A stretch of DNA of 64,000 nucleotides from Rhina ancylostomus (Eukaryota): NCBI GenBank assembly GCA_030265395.1, contig JARFYF010000063.1:43092702-43156701 (forward strand), read 5' to 3'. The notes under the pieces are model-generated. The model made no database searches, was not told where the DNA came from, and saw only the letters and a list, made by a program, of their open reading frames with translations. This document shows, in pieces, positions 2,771 through 53,100 of the stretch (positions within the stretch are counted from its first letter, which is position 1; each line of letters starts with the position of its first letter). The position numbers were made by a program, and so were the translations under genes.

Positions 2771-5286
2771 TTTTTATTCTCACCAGATCTTACACAAAAC
2801 ACGATATACTGTATATCACATGCCATTTAATCACTACTTAAAGGAAAACCCAGCCTTTCCAATGCAGACCCCATTTCTCTCTGGACCAATTAGTTCAACA
2901 ATTAATTGTTGCCTCCAGACATTATCTGTGCAAGTCATTGAGCTGAACTTTAACTCTCAAAAATACATGAGTTGGTATTGTGTGAGAGATTAAGGTTCAA
3001 AAAGTCTGATGCAGAAAAAGAACCAATCGAGGACATAGCCATTTCTGATTTAAATGGAAATCAATCTACTTGCAGGTAGATGTTATAAATATAACAAGAA
3101 AACTGCCTGCCTTAATTTTAACACTTATGTTGTCATGTTTCCCAGTGCTTGGGAAATTTGGCAACAGAAATGAGTTAAAAACCACCTTCACCCACACAGT
3201 TTTTTTTCAGGACTCCTAGTTCCAAGAATATGTACAAAGTGTTTTCAAATTGAATAAAGTGACTACATTACAACAAGGTGTAGAACAAATTTGTTCTAGT
3301 CTTGTCTATGCACAGAAAATGACACCACTGTATGTATTGCCATCATTTATCCAACATCAGTGTTCCAACCTAAGTTGTCAAAGCTACTATCTTTACAGAA
3401 GCTAGATAAATGATACAATTTTTTAAGACTACTATGCAAATAATGAGAAGAGTATTTAGGATCTTTATAAAGATTTTAGTGTTATGTCACAGCCATGGAA
3501 AACTTAGTTGTACATTCAAATTTTGTTAAGACATTCATTAATACATTCCTAGAAATAACATTAACTTAGAGGCTCAATCTTAGTTGCAGAGTATGCACAA
3601 GTGGAACCCTGTGGAGCTCCAGAAAGATGAAACCATTTGATTCTAATGATTTAGAGCATGAGGTTACTTTGGAGAGCAGTAAATTACTTCTCCATTTTTC
3701 TCAGAGGAAGAGTGAAGGTTTAGGAATATTTAAAGCAAAGTTTTCCTTAGGAATTGCATCAGCTGTTAGCTACTGCATACAATGGTTATTTGCCACATAG
3801 AAGAATTAATTATTGTACAATACATCCAGGTCAAGCAAGGATGCAGCTATTGATTATGTAATGATTAATAAAGATTGAAATACATTAGCATGTCTTTATC
3901 CTGAAAGGACATTAGATTTTTACCTGGCCATGACAAGAGTTAATGTTTTTCCATTGTATGGATTGATCCTCAAGTAAAATCATTACTGAGCACCATTTAG
4001 CAATTGGCATGTATTTCTGTGTTTTTTCATGCCAAATTGGTTTATAAGCAGGTGTGAAGATGATTACTTGAGATCATCTTCAATGTAGCAATATTGATCA
4101 TTTTGATGAAAAGGGATTGATCCAAATCATTAACCCTGTTTCTATTTTCACAAATATTGCTGACCAGCTAAGTTTTTCTAGCATTTTCTATTTATTTTTC
4201 AAAGTTCCAGTATCTGCAGTATTTTGTGTTTGGAAGCTTTTCAAAACAAAGCTCAGAATAATAAGTGCTTATGCTCTTCCTGCAGGAAGATTACCCAGAG
4301 CATCTCACAGGAATACATTAAACCAAAAAGTGATACCAAGACAAAACAGAGATTAGAGCAGGTGATGCTGGAGCATAGAGCTAAATTTTAGGTAGAGTTT
4401 TAAATGAAGAGAAACAGATAGAAGACATAGAGGCATACAGAAGCTCTAGAGCCTTAAAAATAGCTGAAGATACAGCTAGTGGTGATGGGATGAAGGAAGC
4501 GACAAATGAACAAGAATCCAGAGCTGGAGGAACATAGGGCACCTTGAGGGTTGGATGAGGTTACAGAAGAGGGAGAATCAAAATCATGGAGAAGTTTCAA
4601 TGTGGAGGCAGGAATTTTAAAATTGAGATATAAGCAGACCAGGACCCACGTAAACAGGAATAATGATTCAGCAGGACTCAATAAATTATAATATGGCATG
4701 AGAGACTTGGATAAGTTCAGGTTTACAAAGGGTGGGAAGTCATCCAGTAAACAATTAGGATAATCTGAAAGTAATAAAAATACGGATGAAGAATTCCGCT
4801 TCAGGGGTACACATAAGTTCATAAACTCCCAGCTACTTTAATACAACTTTAGTGTACTTTTTATCATGGAGGTTGAATTAATAAATGAACGAGGAAGAAT
4901 GTTGAACTGCCGGACTTTGATATGTTCATACTTGTGCTTTGAAAGAAGTTCATTCTTCACATGGCAGTCTCCTTGCAGTCTGCTTTTTGTTCCACTTTCT
5001 TACCTTGCATAGCTTGGTCCTTAGTGTCTTACCTTTTCAAGCTCCTAAAGTTGCTTGCGTACTGTGGTTATAATATCAAAGTATGCAGTAAACGAAGGCT
5101 TTATGTGGGGAGATTATCTGTTCGTACAGAATTAAATAATATTGAACAGATAGNNNNNNNNNNNNNNNNNNNNNNNNNNNNNNNNNNNNNNNNNNNNNNN
5201 NNNNNNNNNNNNNNNNNNNNNNNNNNNNNNNNNNNNNNNNNNNNNNNNNNNNNNNNNNNNNNNNNNNNNNATATAATGCTTTGTAG

Positions 5287-33188
<27,902 letters not shown>

Positions 33189-36857: not shown

Positions 36858-37162
36858 TCTTCTGCAATACAATGAAAATATGAAGACATTCAAACTTAGC
36901 CATAAGCTCTAAACTTCAATGTGCTTGGAAATTTTAAGTTGGTATTTTAGATATGACACAAGTATATGCCTTCGCTGTAAGATTGCACTTGAAAATGCAC
37001 ACCAAGTATATAAAATATTTGCATCATAACAAATGAAACTAATCACAACATTTGCAATGTACATGCACTGTTGTTTTACTTAACATAATTAATACACAGC
37101 TATGTAACTATCAATGCATACAAGTTGTGCATAAATGCAACTTTTGGTCATCTGCATTTTTT

Positions 37163-38183
37163 CTAGAATACACCTTTGTCTTCATATCCTCCATATCCAC
37201 CACCACCCTGGTTACCACCATACCCACCACCACCTCGGTTACCACCGTATCCACCACCACCCTGGTTACCACTGTACCCACCACCACCCCGGTTACCACC
37301 ATATCCACCACCATCCTGGTTACCACCATATCCACCACCACCCCGGTTACCACCATATCCACCACCACCCTGGTTACCACCATATCCACCACCATCCCGG
37401 TTACCACCATATCCACCACCACCCCGGTTACCACCATATCCACCACCATCCTGGTTACCACTGTATCCACCACCCTGGTTATCACTGTATCTGCCACCAT
37501 CCTGGTTACCACCATATCCACCACCACCCTGATTATTACTGTATCCACCGCCACTCTGGTTACCACCGTACCCACCACCACCCCGGTTACTACCATATCC
37601 ACCACTACTCTGGTTACCACCATACCCACCACCACTCCGGTTATCACCATATCCACCACCACCCCGGTTACCTCCATATCCACCACCACCCTGGTTATCA
37701 CCATATCCACCACTACTCTGGTTACCACCGTACCCACCACCACTCTGGTTATCACTGTATCCACCACCACCCCGGTTACCACCATATCCACCACTACCAC
37801 TATGAGTATCATCACTATTATCACCACCACTCTGGTGGCCACTGTATCCTCCACCTTGATAAGCACCATATCCTCCCCTTCCACCTCTATTTTGGTAGCC
37901 ACCATATCCTCCACCTCCACCACCACTTTGGTAGCCACTGTATCGTTCACCACCACCACTTTGATAGTTGCGGTATCCACCACCTTGGTAATTTCCACCA
38001 CCACCTCCTCCTCTCCCTCCTCCAAAATATCCAGAACTGTAACTGCTACGGGAGCCACTGTAACCATTTCCTCTTCCATAACCACCTCCTCCCCTATAAC
38101 CTGAGCCACGACCACTCCCTCTTCCACCAAATCCTTGATTGTCATAACGTGCCATCTTGGGGGGACGAGGACCATCACCAAAC
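37163..38183 (-). CDS. DHX9: DHX9 last coding exon: nuclear transport motif plus expanded RGG/Gly-Tyr low-complexity tail
   Basis: tacag|G then [14 protein letters not shown]; TAG at 37163-37165; 1021 bp, phase consistent. Confidence 0.95.
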
Positions 38184-41100
38184 CTGTAGAAATAAAATGT
38201 AAATTTCATTAGTTAAATTAATAGCATGGAAAAATTATGAAGGCTAATGAGTTGGTAGGTAATTTTTCTAATTTATATTCTTCTATATCCACTCCAAGGT
38301 ACACCATTCAATCACATCTCTAGGTTGCTGAGAAACAAAAGTGCCACGAATAAGTTGTCATTGTACTGCCATTCTATTACTCATGTAGAAGCTCATCACA
38401 ACCAAAAAATTCAAAAACCTAACCATTAGTTTAGCTTTCCTGTTAACTTCTGCGTACAAATTCCAGAATGTATTTACAACTTCAAATTAATTTTGCTAAC
38501 TAAGCAACAATGAACAAAGTTGGCTGCAACCTGAACTTAAATTCCGGATTGAATGTTTTTGGTTGGACTCATTGGAAGGAATTACAAGGAACTGAGAACA
38601 TCACTGGTGCGGCTGGAGAAGACTCTTAACCACTCTGGTATTTGATATTAATCACAAGTGAAAACAGATTAACAAATCTCTGATGTTGAAATAACCAACA
38701 TTTACCAAACACATTTTGTTAATTTTCAGGACAATTTAGGAACTATTTTATCAATTTGGAGATCGGGAAGCTCCAAATGACTTACTTTGTCCCCAGTTCC
38801 CCCCNNNNNNNNNNCCCCCAACCAAAAACAAATTCTTAATTTTCCTTCTCTGCTTCATCTTCTAAAATTGACAAGCTAAATAATCGCAAAGCAAAAAACA
38901 CAAGTATTAGTGCCTGCCCAAGCAGCCACTCTTCAATAAGAATGTTCAGACAGAAAAATGATAGGGTGTTTGAAGTACATGTAACACGCTATGCTTGTTT
39001 TTTTTTCATACAACATCCACATACAGGATGGCAAAAACAGAAGTGTAACTTATCCAGCTTAAGTGTACAGGTGAAAAAGGTTTATTTGGACATATTACAC
39101 AGTGCTCATGGCAGGTATTGGGGAAGTTTCAGCTGCCTTCAATTAGGATGTCAGGACCACAAAGATGATTTGTTTTAGGATGTTACGGTAGCGCAGTGGG
39201 TAGTGCTACTGCCTTACTACTCCAGCGACCTGAGTCTGATCCTGTTCTTAGGTGCTGACTGTGTGGAATTTGCACAAGGTCCCTGTGACTGCATGGGTTT
39301 CCCCAGGTGCCCTACATTCCTCCCACATCCAAAAGATATGCTGGTTGATAGGTTAGCAGGCTAATGTGTCTGTGAATGGGAAGAAAATTGGGTGGAGCTG
39401 ATGGGAGTGTGAAAGAGGATAGGTTGCAAGGAAGTAAGTTGGGTATTGAGATTGCTCTGTGAGCCGGCATCAACTCAGTGGGAAAAACGCCTCTTGATAC
39501 ATCATAAGAAAACATGAGAAATAATATGAGAAAAAAATCCCTGCTCATTATTTGGAGAGAAGCATTACTGTGTCACATCAGATGTATGAAAAATACTGGA
39601 CAATACCATTATTCCACCCTAGATGGAGTTTCCCCATGCTTGAAGTGGTACAAGTAGGTAGGTGTACAACTGGTAACGCCAGTTTCTGGGGTGGTGGTGG
39701 TGTGGGTTATTGCACCACCCCACTTGGGAGGATATTTGCATGCTAGTTGGTTGGTAAATAACATAAATGGTGTCCCTCTTTGCACAGCTTTCTGAGAGCC
39801 TTTCTGAAAGCTTTACATTGAAGTACTAGAATTCATATCGATCAGATCATAAATTCTAATTTATGAAAACACTGGAACTTCACATTACTGCACTCATTAA
39901 GTATTCTGAAAACCTTAAATGTAGCTCACCTTGTGTTTGCCATAAGATTAATGCCCGCTGCCCCAGGTTTTGAAATATGCCGAATCACATTCAGCAACCG
40001 CTCATGTGTGGGATCCAGTTGCCGTATGAATTCAGGATCCTTAGCAACTTCGACAACCAGTGCCTCCATTCCTGCACGCAAAGCAACAATTGCAGCTGCT
40101 GCATAGTGTGGCATCTTCAACTTTATCCTACGAGGCAAAAATTACTATAAGAATTTNNNNNNNNNNAAGAATTTAAAGCAACCAACATGAAACGGATCGG
40201 AATGGTATGGGTTGCCCTGCAGCTGTCATCCTAGAATCAATAACAGCCAAGAAATAAAATCATACAACAGCAACTAACCACATGCATTGACTGATCAGAA
40301 ACATCTCTTGCTGCATAAACAAAGCTAGAGAACTATTGCTTTACTGCCTTTCTGAGATGGCTACACTACATGTAGATTTTTAGAGTAAAACATGGTTAAC
40401 AAATTAATAAAGCTCTACAATTTGCAATGTAACATTTTAGCATCTTCAGATATTTAGCTGATAAGGTGAGTATCTCATTACATACTGGATAAAATTCAAA
40501 GCTCCACTTTATAATCACTGAATATAAATATCTCAGTACAGAGCAAACTGTACAAAAAAAGGCCCAGATATAAGATTATTCAATTGAAAAATTGGCATCA
40601 AACCAAGGTAAAAGAGAGGCACAAGCAGGAAATGCAGTTAAATATATGATGTAAATGGACTTTTAGAAGTTGTTTGATAAAGTGCTACATAATTGGCTTA
40701 TCAAAAAATTTGAAGCCCATGGCAGAACAGGAGCAGTGGCAGTGTGGATAAAATATGGCCCAAGTAATTAGGAACAGAGTCTTGTGGTAAACAGCATTGT
40801 TTCGATGAGTGATTGGTACTGTGACAACAACAGATATTTAATAGATTCAGACAATATATATCAATATTAATTCTGAAATCTGCAAAAACATAGAACTTGA
40901 AAGTGTTGTGAACTGTGATGAGGATAGTAATTGACTTCAACAGACTGGTTAGTGGAACAGTTGGACACAGAACAAATAAAGCTTATTTCAGGAAAAATAC
41001 AAACTATTTCATTTCCATGAGAAGAATGAGGAGAGCCACCAGAGGGCACAATTCTAAGATACAGGAACCAAAAGATTTGGGAAAATACATGCATAAATCA

Positions 41101-44100: not shown

Positions 44101-47100
44101 TTCTTCAGCTAGAGGGTAGTGAACCTTGGCAATTCTCTTCAGAAGACTCACTCATTGAGTATATTCAAGAGATAGATTTTTGAATATTAAGTGAATCAAA
44201 GAATGTAGAGCTCATATAAGAAAGTTGCACTGAGGAAGAAGATTAGCCTGAAAGGATGATGTAAGAAGAGTTAATGATTAAAAGGAAGCTGAAAAAATAT
44301 CCAAAGGGAAAATATTGTTCTGCTGCAAGGGAAACAAAACATATGGCTCCCTCAATATTCTTATAACATATTGGCATAAAATTAATAGACAAAAACTGAC
44401 ACACTTTGAGTTTTAAGATTCAATGATTTCTGTAAGAATGAGCATTGTCTGATAGGGTGAAGGCGTTCACGCAGTGTTCACCGACAGTGCACTCTAGCAA
44501 GACTATTGTTTAAATAAAGCAAGAGATTGTTTCCACACAATGAGCAATTATGTTATTATGTCTATGATTCCTGATTTTTTTCAAAAATGTCTTTTGTATG
44601 AGCACCAGCTACAATGAATAAACAACCGAGGGACAGTGTGCATGAACTGAAAAGGACCTTTGTTTTTGATGTCAAAAGTAACAAGCTACATTTAATAGTT
44701 ACATAAACACGCATTACAATTGAGATTTTAAAAGGTTAAAAAAATATAAGTTTACCTTCAGGGAATCCAGAGTTGATGAGGATGTCCTTCAGCTGAACCT
44801 TAGCTTCCCATGTCATCCGTAAAGTCGCCATGTTTAACCTTTTATGCTCACAAAATCTGATTTCTGCATCTTCCCCTCCCATTCTAGAAAACAAAAAATA
44901 TAAATGCTCAAATGAAGTTAACTTTCCAGAATTACAACAATACAAAAATGGAAATACAGTTTGGTGATTATCTATTTCCCTGGCATACCTTGCATCATCC
45001 CAGGCTTGAAAAACTGAAAGTAGAGCCACATGATCTGAAAATCTTGTTCCTGAAAAATTCCTGTGCACGTAGCCAAGACGTTTGCCTTCATTAATAAAAG
45101 GCTCTGGAAAACAGGTAGCAGCTGATATGGTGCACACGGCATCACCAACACTGCAAAAAACAAAAACAACCCACTGTAAAATTTTCATTGATTTTCCAAC
45201 TTCATTCATAACTGAAGACATTATAAAATATTGAATGACAAAATTGCCACACTTGGAACATTCAAAGGCATTCAAACAAAATAATAAGCATTTCAACAAG
45301 CAGATTTCCCAACCTAATGCTTACCAAGCTGAATCACTAGTTCAATGCCAAACCCTTCATCCACAGATAATATTAAAACACAACAAACTCCAACTTCAAA
45401 TCTAACTGATTTTTGCTGCAACAAAAGATGACTTGAATAGAAATTTATTTTGTAATTTATGTCTCACATTTGGAGAATTTGAAGAATCGAGAAGTTATAT
45501 CCCTGAATTTTCTTGACCTTACACAAAATACCTCAAAAAGAGGTTTTGTGCTCCCACATAATCCTACCATTTTCCTTACCATTTTAAGGTTAATTTTTCT
45601 GTTGGAATTTTGAGCTCAGAGCTTTGAACCCTGGATGCAGCTAACTTGCATCAAACCTTGTTATCACAACACTTACACCACCACCAACCACCAGCTCTCC
45701 TCCCTGTTAGCTGATAGGAGGNNNNNNNNNNNNNNNNGGGCATGACAAACCATTTTGCCCATGGGGGCTTCCCTCTGGCAGGATTGAGTAGAGTTGGAGA
45801 ACATCTGGCATTCAGCTTCTTAACTACCTTGCGGTGCATTAATGCCCAATAACTACACATTCATATTTAACTTTTGGTCATTTGGAGCATTTTGTTGCCT
45901 ATCTGGAATTTGCATACAATTATGAAAGGAAGCTTGAGAAATGTAAGCATGTTAGGACAATATCAAAAACCAATTTAACTCAAGATTATTGAATGAACAG
46001 AATAAAGGGGGCAGAGTGCATAACATTATGTTTTTATATCTTGTCTAACACTTTCTTTGAACTGATAATCTCACAATGAATAGAAATTAATTTAACATGG
46101 AACCAATGAACATGTTACAGACACATGACCACAGTAATGTACAGATTAATGTAACATTAAAAATGCCAGAACTCCCAGTCACCAGTCATTGCTTCCACTT
46201 TGTGAGAGCAAGAGCTACATAAACAGAAACTGATTATGTGTTAAAAATATAGCAAAGACTTTTGTATGTCAGGTCTAAGAAGACTTCATATAGTTTGGAT
46301 CTGACCTAAGATCTCAAGCTGCATAAATAAGTTTAACTTCTAGAAATTGTTCTATTGTAAACTACTATGTAGGACACTCAGAGATTTTAGGTCAGGAAGA
46401 GCCTTTCTCTTACAGATACCAGATAACATCTCAAAACAACAGGCTTACATTTGAATATCCTTAACGTCAACCATAATGAAAGCAAAATAAATTTGCAATC
46501 TATGGTCAAAGAAGCCACCTATTAATACACAGCACAGTTTTGTTTCAGTAACCAGTTTCACAGTTCCTCATATGGCACAATATTGCATGCAACAGGATAC
46601 GTGCTGTTCTTCACAGAAGTATGCACTAAGTGTTCCAAATTCCAAATCCTGGGACCAAAGAAGTACTACATTGCATTTTATTGAATACAGTCTTTTATAA
46701 TCACTGCTTTGACTTACTGGAAAATGCAGCCCATAATCATCATTTTGCCTAGACGTGGTTCAATAGGAAGTCGAGCCAAGATGCGGCCCAGTGGAGTCAA
46801 CTCATCATTGGTATCCAAAGCATCAAGTTCTGTGAAAGAGAATAAATTTTATTAAAATCACACTGATATTACGTGTGAACAAACTGCATTTTGTACCGAG
46901 GTATCATTGGTATGATCTGAGAACAATTTATCTGCTGGGAAGAGATTTGTAGGGCAATGAACCAGCAACATACTGTCACTTGCAGATTTACAAAATCATT
47001 ATTTCTATAGAATCCAGTCTTTCTCCCCCCCCCCACCGGTTCAGATTTTTGAAACACTAAGTAGAAAATTTGAAACTTGCTCCGCATTTGTATGCAGGAT

Positions 47101-50100
47101 GCCTCTCAGGTTGGAATAATTTAAACAAGAGGGTACAATGACATAGACCTTCTGCCACACAACTCCAGCATCCCAGCTTGGATCCTGACGTCAGAGAAAC
47201 AAAGGACTGCAGATGCTGGAATCTAGATGAAAAAATAATAAGACGCTGGAGGACTCAGCAGGTCAGGCAGCATCCGTTGGGTCCTGAAGAAGGGTTCCGA
47301 CCCAACATTGACCATCTGCTTTTCTCCACGGATGCTTCCTGACCTGCTGAGTCCCTCCAGAATCTTATTGTTTTTTGACCCTGACATCAGGTGCAGTCTG
47401 GGAAAAGTCTGCATATTCTCCCCATGACATGAGTTTCCCCAGATGCTCCAATTTCCTCCTATATCCTAAATACTTGCTGATAGGTTAACTGGCCACTATA
47501 AAATTACCACTATTGTCAGTGGGGGAAGGAGAAGCAGAGGGGACTTTATTGGCACACGAGAGAGAATAGGTTACAAGTAAATGTGGGAGAAACAGAACTG
47601 ATGGGAATGGTCTGAGAGCTGGTACAACCTAAATGGGCCAAATGGCTTCCTCCTTTGTCACACGGGGATACAATTAGTGATCATAAAAATAAAAAAGGTA
47701 TTGTAACACATCAGTATTAAAATTAGTCATACTTCATAAGAGCCAGTCAAGCTTTCATAAAAATTCCATGAAGGACTTCTGTACTTTGCTGCATTATTGC
47801 CATGATACGAAAGCCACCTGGCCCCTCAAGCCTGCCCTGTTGTTCAATATAGTCAAGGCTGATCTACCCTTGGTCACAATTCCTCTTCTGCACCAGTTCC
47901 ATAAAGCCCTCAATCATTCAAAAATTTATCTATCTTCTCTTTAAACACCTCCAAAGTTCTAGTCTCCTTAGCCCTCTTAGGAAGAGGAATCTAGAGATTC
48001 GCTACACTCTGCAAGAAATTCCTACAGCCCTCAATTTTGAAGGACAAGCATTATCTGGTAACCCTCTCACTTGTAAAAAAAAATCTCAACATTGGGCATG
48101 GCCTCACAGGATCTTTTTATATTTCAAAAAGATCACCCTCATTCTTCTAAACTGCAAGGAATGCAACTATCGGTGGCAATAACAACACTCTCATCCCAGA
48201 AATTAGTGCAGTGATTATCTTCTGGACTGACTCCAATGCCATTATACGCTCTCTTAAATAAGGCGACCAAACCTGAATGCTGTACTCCAGATGTAACCTC
48301 ACCAATACCCTAAGTATAACAAAACTTATCTCTTCCTCCAATCTACTTATCATAGATATGCTATTTACCTTCCTAACTACTTGCTGCACCTGTATGCACA
48401 ACACTTCGATCCCTCTGTACTCGTCCCTCTCCATCTCAATAATGCTCTGCCTTTTGATTTTTCCTGTGTGACCTCACAATTGTCTACATTAAACTCCATT
48501 TGCCATGTTTTCCTACATACTCACCCTGTCTATATTCTGTTGCAGAATCCAAATATCCCCAATGTAGCATGGCCTCCTATCTATTTTTGCACCATCAATA
48601 AACTTAGAATCCTTAACAAGACCCCTTCCTCTTAGTTGTGAACATTGGGGAGGTGATGGCACAGTGGTATTAACACTAGATTAATAATCTAGATACCCAG
48701 TGCAAAGTTCTGGGGACCTGGGTTCGAATCCCACCACGGCAGATAGTGATAAAAATTCAAATTCTGGGATTAAAATGTCAAGTGATGATCGTGAAAACCA
48801 TTGTCAATTGTTGTAAAGACCTATCTGGTTCACTACTGTCCTGGAGGGAAGGGAAATCTGCCATCCTTACATGGTCTGGCCTACATGCAACTTCAGATCC
48901 ACAGCAATGTGGTTGACTCTGAACTGCCCTCTGAAATGGTCTAGTAAGCCATTCAGTTGTAATAAATGACTAAAAAGCCACAAGGAAATAAAACCAGACA
49001 TATCACCTAGAATCAACCTGGGCACCGGAAATGGCAACAGCAAAAATTGCTGTACCTGTATGCACAACACTTCGATCCCTCTGTACTCCCTGTAAAGTCC
49101 TCCTTAGCAACATCTGAGGGCTTGTGCCAAAATTGCAAGAGCTATCTCACAAACTAGTCAACAACAGTCTAGCTGTCTCACAGACTAGTCAATGATACTC
49201 ACACAGAATTAGACCTTACAGTCAATGTCCAGACGCCATCCCTGGGCATGTCCTGTCCCACCAGCAGGATAAACCCAGCAGAGGCAGTGCAGTCAGGAGG
49301 GAACTGCCCTGGGAGTCCTCGACAATGATTCTAGATCCCATGAACTCTCATGGCATTAGGTTAAAACTTGGGCAAGGAAACCTTCTGCTGACTACCACCT
49401 ACCATCTCCTTTTGTCGATGAATTAATGCTACTCCATATAGAAAACCACTTGGAGAAAGCACTGAGAATGACAAAGGTGTGGAATGTACTCTGGGTGGGG
49501 GATGCAACATCCATCAAGAGTGGCTCAGTAGCACCAGTACTGACTGAGCAACAAAAGGCACTACTGCTAGATTGGGTCTGCGGCAGGTGGTGAGGGAACA
49601 AACGTGAGCGAAAATCCTACGTGATCTCGTTCTCACCNNNNNNNNNNNNNNNNNNNNNNNNNNNNNNNNNNNNNNNNNNNNNNNNNNNNNNNNNNNNNNN
49701 NNNNNNNNNNNNNNNNNNNNNNNNNNNNNNNNNNNNNCCAATGTACCTGATGCAGATGGATCTGTCCACGACAGTATCAGTAGGAGTGACCACGGTACAG
49801 TCCTTGTGGATAGGAAATCCCATCTTCACAGTGAAAATTCACTTCATCGTGTCATGTGACACTACCATGCAATAAATGGGGCAGACCGTGAACAGATCTA
49901 GCAGTTCGGGACTGGGCAAATTGAGACACTGTAGGCAATTAGCACAAGCAGCAGAGCTAAACTCAACCACAATCAGCAACCTCATGGTCCAGCATAATCC
50001 CTGCTCTACCATCAAACCAGGAGATCAACCCTGCTTCAATGAAGACTGCAGGAGGGTATGCCAGGAGCAGTACCAGGCATACCTCAGAATGAGAAATAAA

Positions 50101-53100
50101 CCTGGAGAAGCTACAAGACAGGACTACCTGCATGCCAATCAACATAAAAAGCGGGTAATAGACAAAGTGATCCCACAACCAATGGATCAGACCTAAGCTC
50201 TGCAGTCCTGCCACATCCAGTTCCAAATGATGGTGGACAATTCAACAACTTACTGGAAGAGCAGGCTCCACAAGTATTCCCATTCTCAATGATGGGGGAG
50301 CCCAGACCATCAGTGCAAAAGAGAAAGTTGAAGCATTTGCAAGAATCTTCATCCAGATCAATCTTGACTGATCTTGATCTCCTTCAGTAGGATCCCCAGC
50401 ATGGTGGGTACCAGCCTTCAACCAATTTGATTCGCTTCATGTGAAGCCGCTAAAGGTATTGCATACTGCAAAGGTTATGGGCCCTGACAACATTCCAGCA
50501 ATAGTACTGAACTTGCCGAGCACTTGGCCGAGCTCTTTCAGTACTGTGACAACTACCTTACAATGTGGAAAATTGCCTGGGTATGACCTATCCACAAGAA
50601 GCAGGACAAATCCAACCCNNNNNNNNNNCCCGGCCAGTTACTGCCCCATTAGTCTACTCTCAATTATCGGCAAAGTGACGGAAGGGATAATCAATGGTGC
50701 TATCAAGCAGCAACAATCTGCTCACAGAAGCTGAGTTTGGCTTCCGCCAAAGCCACTCAGCCCCTGACCCCATTACACCTTGGACAAAAGAGCTGAACTC
50801 CAGATGTGAAGTGAAAGTAACTGCCTTTGACATCAAGGTAGCATTTGATCGAGAATGGAATCAAGAAACCCTGGCTAAACTGGAGTTGATGGGAATCAAT
50901 GGGTAAACCCTCCACTGGCTGGAATCGTACCAAGCACANNNNNNNNNNNNNNNNNNNNNNNNNNNNNNNNCTCAGCCATGGGACATTTCTGCAGGAGTTC
51001 CTCAGGGTAGTATCCTGGGCCCAACCATCTTCAACTGCTTCATCAATTACCTTCCTTCAATTGCAAGGTCAGAAGTAGGGATGTTCTCTGATAATTGCAC
51101 AATCCTCAGATAATGAAGCAGTCCATAACTAAGTGCAGCAAGAACTGGACAATATCCAGGCTTGGGCTGCTAGGCGGCAAGTAACATTTGCACCAAACAG
51201 GTGCCTGGCAATAACAATATCCAACAAGAGAAAATCCAGCCATCACCACCTGAAATTCAGTTTTTACCATGACCATCACTGAATCCCCCACTATTAATTT
51301 CCTGGGGGTTACCATTGATCAGAAGCTGCAGTAGCCATATACACAATGTGGCTACAAGAGCAGGTCAGAGGCTTGGAATCCTGTAGTGAGTAACTCACCT
51401 CCTAACTCTCCAAAGCCTGTCCACTATCTACAAGGCTCAAGTCCAGCAGTGGATGGAATATTTTCCATTTGCCCAGATAAGTACAGTTTCAAGAATACTC
51501 AAGAAGCTCAACACCATATAAGGCGTGGCAGCTGACTTGATAGGCATCCCATCCACAACCACTCACTCCACCACCGATACACAGTAGCAGCAGTTAGTAC
51601 CATCTACAGGATGCACTGCAGCAACTCATCAAGACTCATAGGATAGCACCTTCCAAGCCCATGACCTCTACCAGCTAGGAGGACGTGGGCAGCAAAAGCA
51701 TGGGACACTACCAAATGGAAGTTGCACTCCAACACACCATCCAGACATGGAAATATATCGTCATTCCTTCATCATTTCTGGGTCAAAATCCTGGAACTCT
51801 CTCCCTAACAGCATTGTGGGTATACCCACACTTCAAGGATTGCAACAGTTCAAGGTGGCAGTTCATCACCACCTTCTCCAGGGCAAATAGGGATGGGCAA
51901 TTAAATACTGGCTCAGCCTGTAAAACCAAGATCTGTTGAATAATATTTTAAAAAAGTGGTAAATACTTTAGAACCAAGAACTGATTTTCATGGCATTCCA
52001 CTAATTACATCCGTTCAGCCTGAAAACTATCAATTTATTCTGACACTGCTTTCTCAATGATTACCAGTCTTCAGTGCACATTAACATGTTCCACCCTCCC
52101 CCATACGATGAGTTCATCTTGTGCACCAGCCTTTTGTGTTGCACTTTATCAAATGCTGCCTGAAAATCCAAAAACACTACATCTGCATGTTTTCCTCTAT
52201 TTATTGACTGCTTGTTACACCGTGAATAAACTCTAGCAAATTAGTCAAACGTGAATTTCCTTTCAAAAACCACGTTGACTTGGTTTGATCGTAATAAGCT
52301 TCTCTAAATGAATAGTTAGTTTCTTCCAGAATTTTCACAACAACAGATAGTTAATTGGCCCACTGTTTCCTTCTTGGAGAAAGCCATCACATTCATAGTT
52401 TCCAAATACACAGATATACTTCTGGAAATCAGCGAATTTTGAAATACTTCAACCAATTACTGTGTTAAATCTACAGCCCACATCCTTCAGAACCCTAGGA
52501 ATAATACAATCCCCTCACTGTTTCCAATATCTTGAACCTCGTGATAGGGATTAGAATCATAGAGAGATAGAGCATGGAAGCAGGCCCTTCACCTACTGAG
52601 CCCATGCTAAACATCAAGCATCCATTTTTACATCAGTCCTACTCTCACCCATCTGACTCCCATCAACCCCCTACCTCAAAGATCCTGCCGCTAATCTACA
52701 CACTATAAGCAATTTAAAGCAGCTACTTAATCTACAAACCTATGCCTTTGGGACATCGCTTGCTATAATTTCTTCCATTCTATTTGAAACCAACCCATCT
52801 TTTATCTGTGGGATGTTTCCAGTGTCCTCACTAATAATGATGCAAAGCTCTGATTTAAGTTAATTGCCTTTTCCTTGTTCCCAGTATTAATTCCCTCATT
52901 TTGCCCTTCAGTGATCTTGCATTAACCTAAGCCACCCTCTTCCTCTTTTCTATGTCCATAGAAGTTCCTGCTGATAATGACTTGCCAGTTTTCTCTTGTA
53001 ATCAATTTCTCCCACCTTTTGCTGCTGATTCCTGAAATATCCCCAGTCCTTTGGTCTATTACCAGCTTCAGCCACTTAGCATTCTCTAGTTTTTGACTTA

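Follow-up and report, generated by a model that had tools for sequence, protein, structure and literature searches.

A fold-back insert in a DHX9 intron of Rhina ancylostomus is a dead stub of a Penelope-like element and may record the start of its RNA and the priming of its inverted arm

What is the short inverted structure that interrupts a SINE in an intron of DHX9, and what set the edge that it shares with a second copy nearby? Both copies lie in the window, the 64,000-nucleotide stretch of Rhina ancylostomus DNA analyzed here. The insert at 47181-47390 is a real, common and dead stub of a Penelope-type retrotransposon inside an older SINE, and the locus itself is one among tens of thousands of dead insertions. 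It is bounded by a 14-bp target site duplication (TSD) at 47181-47194 and 47377-47390, identical at 12 of 14 positions as the initial annotation had read it, and the 182 bp between the TSD copies hold two arms alone and no open reading frame (ORF). Element coordinates are counted backward from the 3′ end, which is -1. The short arm (47193-47277, minus strand) spans about -86 to -1, includes a 33-nt tail (about 47194-47225) and is 86% identical to the 3′ 87 nt of the second copy, at 19355; the final two bases of the element are shared with the end of the left TSD (47193-47194). The long arm (47281-47376, plus strand) spans -133 to -37, lacks the tail and begins where helix I of a hammerhead motif has its 5′ edge. 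Sense sequence at 47280-47375 is 86% identical to 19378-19475. The two arms and the match to 19378 had been placed correctly, except that the antisense arm begins at 47193, not 47195, and that the G at 47280 lies outside the family sequence, where the base is A in 54 of 59 copies. This G is part of a 2-3 nt arm junction (47278-47280) that would be compatible with a GG microhomology with the short arm. The arms align over 49 columns and the region folds at -97.4 kcal/mol (z -9.5; 0 of 200 shuffles as stable), in agreement with the stem described initially.

The long arm carries the remnant of a minimal type I hammerhead (47281-47312, plus strand, by the motif definition of PMC4209133), with a CUGAAGA box located by motif inspection at 47284-47290 and a predicted cut between 47309 and 47310. 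Its GAAA box is not intact in this copy; the break in the core that had been noticed is a 2-nt deletion in the sense arm. The second copy (19342-19527, plus strand) shows a perfect 13-bp TSD (19342-19354 and 19515-19527), an inverted arm covering -57 to -33 (19355-19378, minus relative to the long arm) and a long arm with the tail that covers -133 to -1 (19379-19514, plus strand). The mirror geometry attributed to the pair was confirmed, the tail being on the inverted short arm at 47181, and the alignments support the view that one family inserted twice, independently. The palindromic two-base helix III of the 19355 copy shows CpG decay at 19406-19407, and that ribozyme is probably inactive as well. 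Among Logan contigs, the right junction of the 47181 insert was bridged with 0 differences in run X1 and with 19 differences over 593 nt in another organism, X2, and in two more organisms contigs share the left flank together with 22 nt of the arm, too little to reach the bridging threshold. These contigs indicate that the insertion is old and that assembly error does not explain its outer ends; a contig bridging the central arm-arm junction was not found among the Logan contigs listed.

The host sequence is a tRNA-type SINE of a dispersed family, with a B box in its head and a conserved central stretch visible in the alignment. The motif definition of the B box is our assumption, and the V-SINE label is one that we presume by resemblance. 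Alignment with 19 relatives placed its 5′ part, up to the B-box-like stretch, at 47120-47180 (left edge approximate) and its 3′ part at 47391-47660 (right edge approximate), both on the plus strand. When the insert and one TSD copy were removed, as the initial annotation had suggested, a contiguous SINE was restored: the host aligned without a gap at the insertion point to the 19 relatives, most of which are continuous there. Since the insert is nested inside the SINE it is the younger of the two, as had been supposed. The SINE lies within DHX9, which is encoded on the minus strand: exon 43652-43933 matches RNA helicase A (E 2e-45); a splice acceptor lies at 46830, and the exon just downstream of the host intron (46718-46829, minus strand) has a translation that we take to be DHX9. 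The placement in a DHX9 intron was therefore correct. The insertion site comprises the B-box-like stretch and the bases right after it. This setting looks incidental, with the landing in the B box apparently due to chance. Targeting of V-SINEs or B boxes was rejected, as a SINE match was present in 1 of 158 3′ flanks (3′ flanks only), that of the 47181 copy itself, in line with the 1.4% share of SINE bases in the census DNA (11,423 of 822,124). Two further stubs, L012 and L026, have 5′ flanks that look SINE-like by eye and were missed by the 3′-flank test. The idea that the hairpin is tied to DHX9 function was abandoned, as nothing supported it. A second copy of the host SINE family, more diverged (67% identity), was seen at 39206-39361.

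By homology, the insert derives from a Neptune-type EN+ Penelope-like retrotransposon (PLE), of which it represents the 3′ end (pLTR). Most relatives extend upstream past the boundary of the 47181 and 19355 copies. The longest stretch shared by two copies, about 1.6 kb, covers the end of an ORF that in long copies encodes a C-X4-C-X2-C linker and a GIY-YIG/CCHH-type nuclease. Homologues of the ORF-end peptide are proteins of 889-924 aa with a reverse transcriptase (RT) and a GIY-YIG domain, and full-length ones matched RVT_1 (E 1e-9 and 6e-9) and, at the C-terminus, GIY-YIG (E 5e-4 and 3e-4). Own-genome relatives of the ORF of copy L141 matched RVT_1 below the cut-off (E 2e-6, 28 vs 29.6 bits). 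Pfam returned no GIY-YIG match for the own-genome nuclease peptides, and a PDB search with the RT peptide gave no match. The nuclease peptide aligned to homologues whose own Pfam GIY-YIG matches are below the cut-off (E 3e-4 to 2e-3), with CxxC and two His visible. The family thus combines the features of EN+ PLEs: an RT upstream of the pLTR, a C-terminal GIY-YIG nuclease with the CCHH motif and a hammerhead in the pLTR, together with the optional tail and inverted 5′-truncated copy (second arm at -30 to -39 in 18 of 27 fold-backs). A CX2-5CxxC linker between RT and nuclease characterizes Neptune and also Nematis (PMC8557442), and the C-X4-C-X2-C found here occupies that position. Neptune is preferred because the vertebrates sampled in a preprint on retrozymes held only Neptune and Poseidon (bioRxiv 10.64898/2026.07.22.740005); judged by the linker motif, the clade is Neptune-type. 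The genome would hold about 35,000 copies, a figure derived from 16 young-family arms in 97 stretches totalling about 0.84 Mb, 95 of them evenly spaced and 2 flanking the window. More diverged, older-looking fragments of PLE tails were seen in the window at 25807-25939, 24878-24960, 21765-21834, 4160-4227 and 25565-25610, and these are probably older subfamilies.

Insertions of EN+ PLEs are described as carrying an inverted 5′-truncated pLTR and a one-sided tail of 30-40 bp (PMC8557442; Adineta Pen2a, PMC3846280), and by analogy the 47181 structure is this pattern. A separate "hammerhead fold-back element", as first annotated, is therefore not what the locus holds; what landed there is a truncated PLE, and both its inverted copy and its tail at one end were already known features. 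The structure resembles those of EN+ PLEs and Adineta Pen2a in the head-to-head inverted truncated copy, the tail at one end, the TSD, the pLTR hammerhead and the TATA/Inr-like motifs of the pLTR. It differs from what is described of them in that the insert has only two arms, 182 bp and no ORF, in that the tail can sit on the shorter arm, and in the TSDs, which are 8-10 bp in Adineta and 12-16 bp here. For a PLE of the anole, two RT start sites bracketing the tail, cleavage and extension of both strands and a predicted protein dimer have been described (PMC11167929), and the second-arm ends at -30 to -39 and at -1 match both the 30-40 bp tail and these two start sites. This Anolis element (PAc, in vitro) is also like ours in that cleavage by its ribozyme is dispensable, but it belongs to the Poseidon clade and has no linker zinc finger, and neither fold-back products nor a transcription-start boundary is derived in the available part of that paper (PMC11167929).

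To determine how often the family is found in fold-back form, how long its TSDs are and where its junctions lie, as the initial annotation had proposed, we searched the genome for exact matches to the 3′ 40-mer and examined the first 100 of the 895 obtained, chosen regardless of the 5′ side. Clear fold-backs numbered 27 and 42 copies were scored as single, at least 3 of which carry long inverted arms; the other 31 were cut by N gaps of the assembly, by which long copies are perhaps depleted and the edge described below sharpened. A TSD exceeding the 99% null accompanied 14 of the 27 fold-backs, with a length of 12-16 bp in 13 of them, and 6 of the 42 single copies. The longer arm ended at -120 to -146 in 21 of the 27 fold-backs, and the second arm at -30 to -39 in 18 and at -1 in 2. 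Among one-tailed fold-backs, the tail-less arm reaches further 5′ in 15 of 25, as in the 47181 copy. All 27 junction pairs were different, from which it follows that fold-backs are made anew each time and that there is no master fold-back. A self-copying fold-back family or MITE was rejected on the same count, the shared junction and symmetric termini being absent and the ends asymmetric. The two arms were concordant in subfamily in 6/6 and 25/25 cases (by eye; p 1e-6), which could reflect different periods of activity. Divergence between arms equals that between copies (0.133 in both), and private mutations common to both arms showed no excess. In the sample of 100 (L191-L290), 15 of the 31 gap-cut copies stop at -74 to -84. 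Three copies (L192, L205 and L238) have a short tail arm and a long inverted arm that runs into the ORF end, with far ends in N gaps. At the 3′ junctions of 158 copies, the bases after the terminal CTC lean toward T, A and G (105, 76 and 59 of 158), a lean that reflects either a continuation of the element or a weak preference in targeting or priming.

The hammerhead core occupies -130 to -107, with helix I formed by -133 to -131 paired with -102 to -100 (definition of PMC4209133). Helix I is 3 bp long in the majority of the family. The motif was assigned by inspection and from the literature; Rfam at gathering thresholds gave no match in the whole window, a strict regular expression found 10 motifs only, and helix I covariation yielded nothing useful, just CpG decay. 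The likeness to the minimal hammerheads of metazoan PLEs (PMC4209133) extends to the CUGANGA and GAAA boxes, the extra base before helix II and the palindromic two-base helix III, but the 3-bp helix I and the loss of the GAAA box at 47181 depart from those described. Paired hammerhead motifs on opposite strands are also mentioned for metazoan PLEs in that source.

The shared 5′ boundary at the hammerhead is statistically real in this genome, as the initial annotation had implied. In the 100-copy sample, 11 of 36 arms at risk have their 5′ end in -129 to -139 (0.032 vs 0.0054 per nt, p 9e-6), and in a second set of 28 copies, from which one duplicate locus and the 47181 copy had been dropped, 6 of 21 do (p 7e-4). 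A 0.9-Mb census of all subfamilies showed that about 25 of 56 copies reaching the front of the hammerhead lose family sequence right there, a split made by eye with about 5 ambiguous cases, and the TSD abuts this front in 8 of these approximately 25. Among the 5′ ends with unrelated flanks listed from the Logan contigs of run X1, which are independent of the assembly, -133 has the best support (41 contigs). These counts, which come from samples of 100, 28 and 56 copies and a contig table, place the boundary at -133/-134, the 5′ edge of helix I. A pile of loose ends at -118 in the contig table was discarded, as a mismatch at -119 is private to the reference copy.

The boundary coincides with promoter-like motifs. 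TATAWAW and TCAKTY, which we take to be promoter consensus motifs, each occur once in the 386-nt tail, the former at -165 and the latter with its A at -134, where it reads TCA(+1)GTC; the spacing between them is 31 nt, so that the TATA stands at -31. Because of this coincidence, -133/-134 is likely the start of the element RNA, transcribed by Pol II from a TATA and an initiator. In older-family copies, a TATA is present 24-29 nt upstream in 7 of 18 and absent at that distance in 11 of 18. A cap-derived extra G was not seen at the boundary in the census or the contigs, in which the commonest first foreign base is T, and no RNA dataset was listed among those containing the 47181 locus. Predicted folds gave the hammerhead helices in an RNA starting at -134 and, with upstream bases added, a hairpin that hides the core. 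The pile-up at -134 yields an exact and cheap prediction of where the RNA starts and of what products would form in vitro.

Could the boundary have arisen without an RNA end? RT might have stalled in the folded or protein-bound hammerhead, with junctions picked by inverted microhomologies, among them helix II. The 5′ ends are indeed spread over several bases (-116 to -146), and two copies, L200 and L259, join at the 7-nt inverted pair -139/-130, which is the longest short-range inverted repeat of the region; the anole ribozyme, moreover, is protein-assisted (PMC11167929). Single copies nonetheless stop at the same place though they need no arm-to-arm pairing, RT, which enters the structure from the 3′ side (-100), should stall there rather than at the far edge, and the hairpin differs in older families that have the boundary in common. 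We regard this explanation as unlikely. That the boundary is a 3′ splice site like the one of D. virilis Penelope, acting through copies of spliced RNA or through RT stalled at the splicing complex, appears improbable. The letters at the boundary also read as a pyrimidine tract and a CAG splice acceptor (-135 to -133), conserved in old and young families, and the D. virilis intron ends at the 5′ end of helix I (PMC4209133). The absence of exon sequence counts against splicing: there is none between the boundary and the TSD in the 8 abutting copies, nor between the boundary and the second arm, and the gaps at the joints are only 0-5 nt in 18 of 27 fold-backs. Furthermore, none of the 15 joints listed out of 41, in contigs of another organism whose RNA status is a guess, ends at -132, and PLEs are reported to keep introns (PMC2377424). 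D. virilis Penelope itself is described as having a TATA-less internal promoter, with a start 46 nt upstream of the intron (PMC2377424).

The long arm of the 47181 copy is without the tail and the short arm without the hammerhead, so each holds sequence absent from the other and neither is a DNA copy of the other; both would therefore come from the RNA of the element, with one anchored at either side of the TSD. We infer the transcription start, the priming from two sides and the joining step, and consider the whole on balance probable. A PLE protein likely nicked both strands about 14 bp apart, and each nick likely primed reverse transcription from one of two fixed sites on the RNA. The first cDNA would start at the end of the tail (-1) and stop at about -86. 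The second would start 33-37 nt inside and likely run off at the RNA 5′ end, -133/-134, a likely Pol II start that would make the hammerhead the first part of the RNA. Joining of the two cDNAs at their ends would then likely proceed via 1-3 nt of microhomology.

Self-priming (snap-back) of a single strand, or a self-copying mini-family, is a very doubtful source of the second arm. It was proposed for Adineta Penelope on an antisense template (PMC3846280), and it is compatible with the 19355-type geometry, in which the short arm is nested in the long one with the tail (in 11 of 27 fold-backs the arm with the tail is the one that extends further). A tail on the shorter arm, however, rules out simple snap-back copying for the 47181 type (15 of 25), in which each arm has sequence that the other lacks; the 27 junction pairs all differ, and the second arm has its end at a fixed position of the element, next to the TSD. 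A protein with cleavage and extension of both strands and a predicted dimer form fits better than the self-priming proposed in PMC3846280. Self-cleavage of the hammerhead as the origin of the shared end, the "ribozyme-defined" boundary of the initial annotation, has the coincidence with the ribozyme edge in its favor but is scarcely credible and, for the family at 47181, is refuted by both end samples, given that cleavage is predicted to leave 5′ ends 30 nt 3′ of the boundary, at -102, that each sample has 1 end in -99 to -105, at or below background, and that the anole element needs no cleavage and has no reads ending at the cut (PMC11167929).

The two-nick explanation can be extended to the PLE cycle, an extension to which we would give slightly less than an even chance. 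Stubs of this kind, in their thousands, would be a fossil record of this cycle, in which the RNA starts at the first base of the hammerhead by means of the TATA and initiator, the ribozyme folds only in that RNA, and the inverted pLTR arises by twin priming. According to the predicted folds, upstream bases in read-through RNA would pair with and mask the ribozyme core, and one protein dimer would prime two overlapping cDNAs, one per nicked strand, on the sense RNA. If this is true, the canonical inverted pLTR arises by twin priming and not by self-priming. In L1 twin priming, a second nick primes a second cDNA and an inversion between TSDs results; L1 arms are not known to overlap, whereas here both arms copy the same 25-90 nt and begin at fixed sites. 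The geometry of the 47181 copy bears on how inverted pLTRs and the tail arise and on what PLE hammerheads do. A literature search that reached few subscription journals and no Repbase/Dfam notes or supplements turned up neither the transcription-start nor the twin-priming reading in print. Non-LTR retrozymes are likewise short, non-coding, PLE-derived and equipped with a type I hammerhead, but those described are head-to-tail tandems (bioRxiv 10.64898/2026.07.22.740005), while the stubs are head-to-head products of single events in which the upstream promoter motif is absent. A retrozyme identity was rejected, as the arms are head-to-head with one core and not tandem units each with a hammerhead.

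Some minor observations were made on the family and the window. Copies L200, L259 and L028 have junctions at or beside the 7-nt inverted pair flanking -133 to -130, in both mirror forms. The ORF stop region at about -410 resembles a strong splice donor in L241, L020 and L230; with the acceptor-like -133 it could define an intron of about 280 nt, of which the joined form was not seen. About 1.1 kb of the window (37043-38212) is open in several frames on both strands and has no Pfam match; it is probably a simple or tandem repeat. A weak RVT_1 match (E 0.004) at 52064-52240 is likely a LINE fragment.
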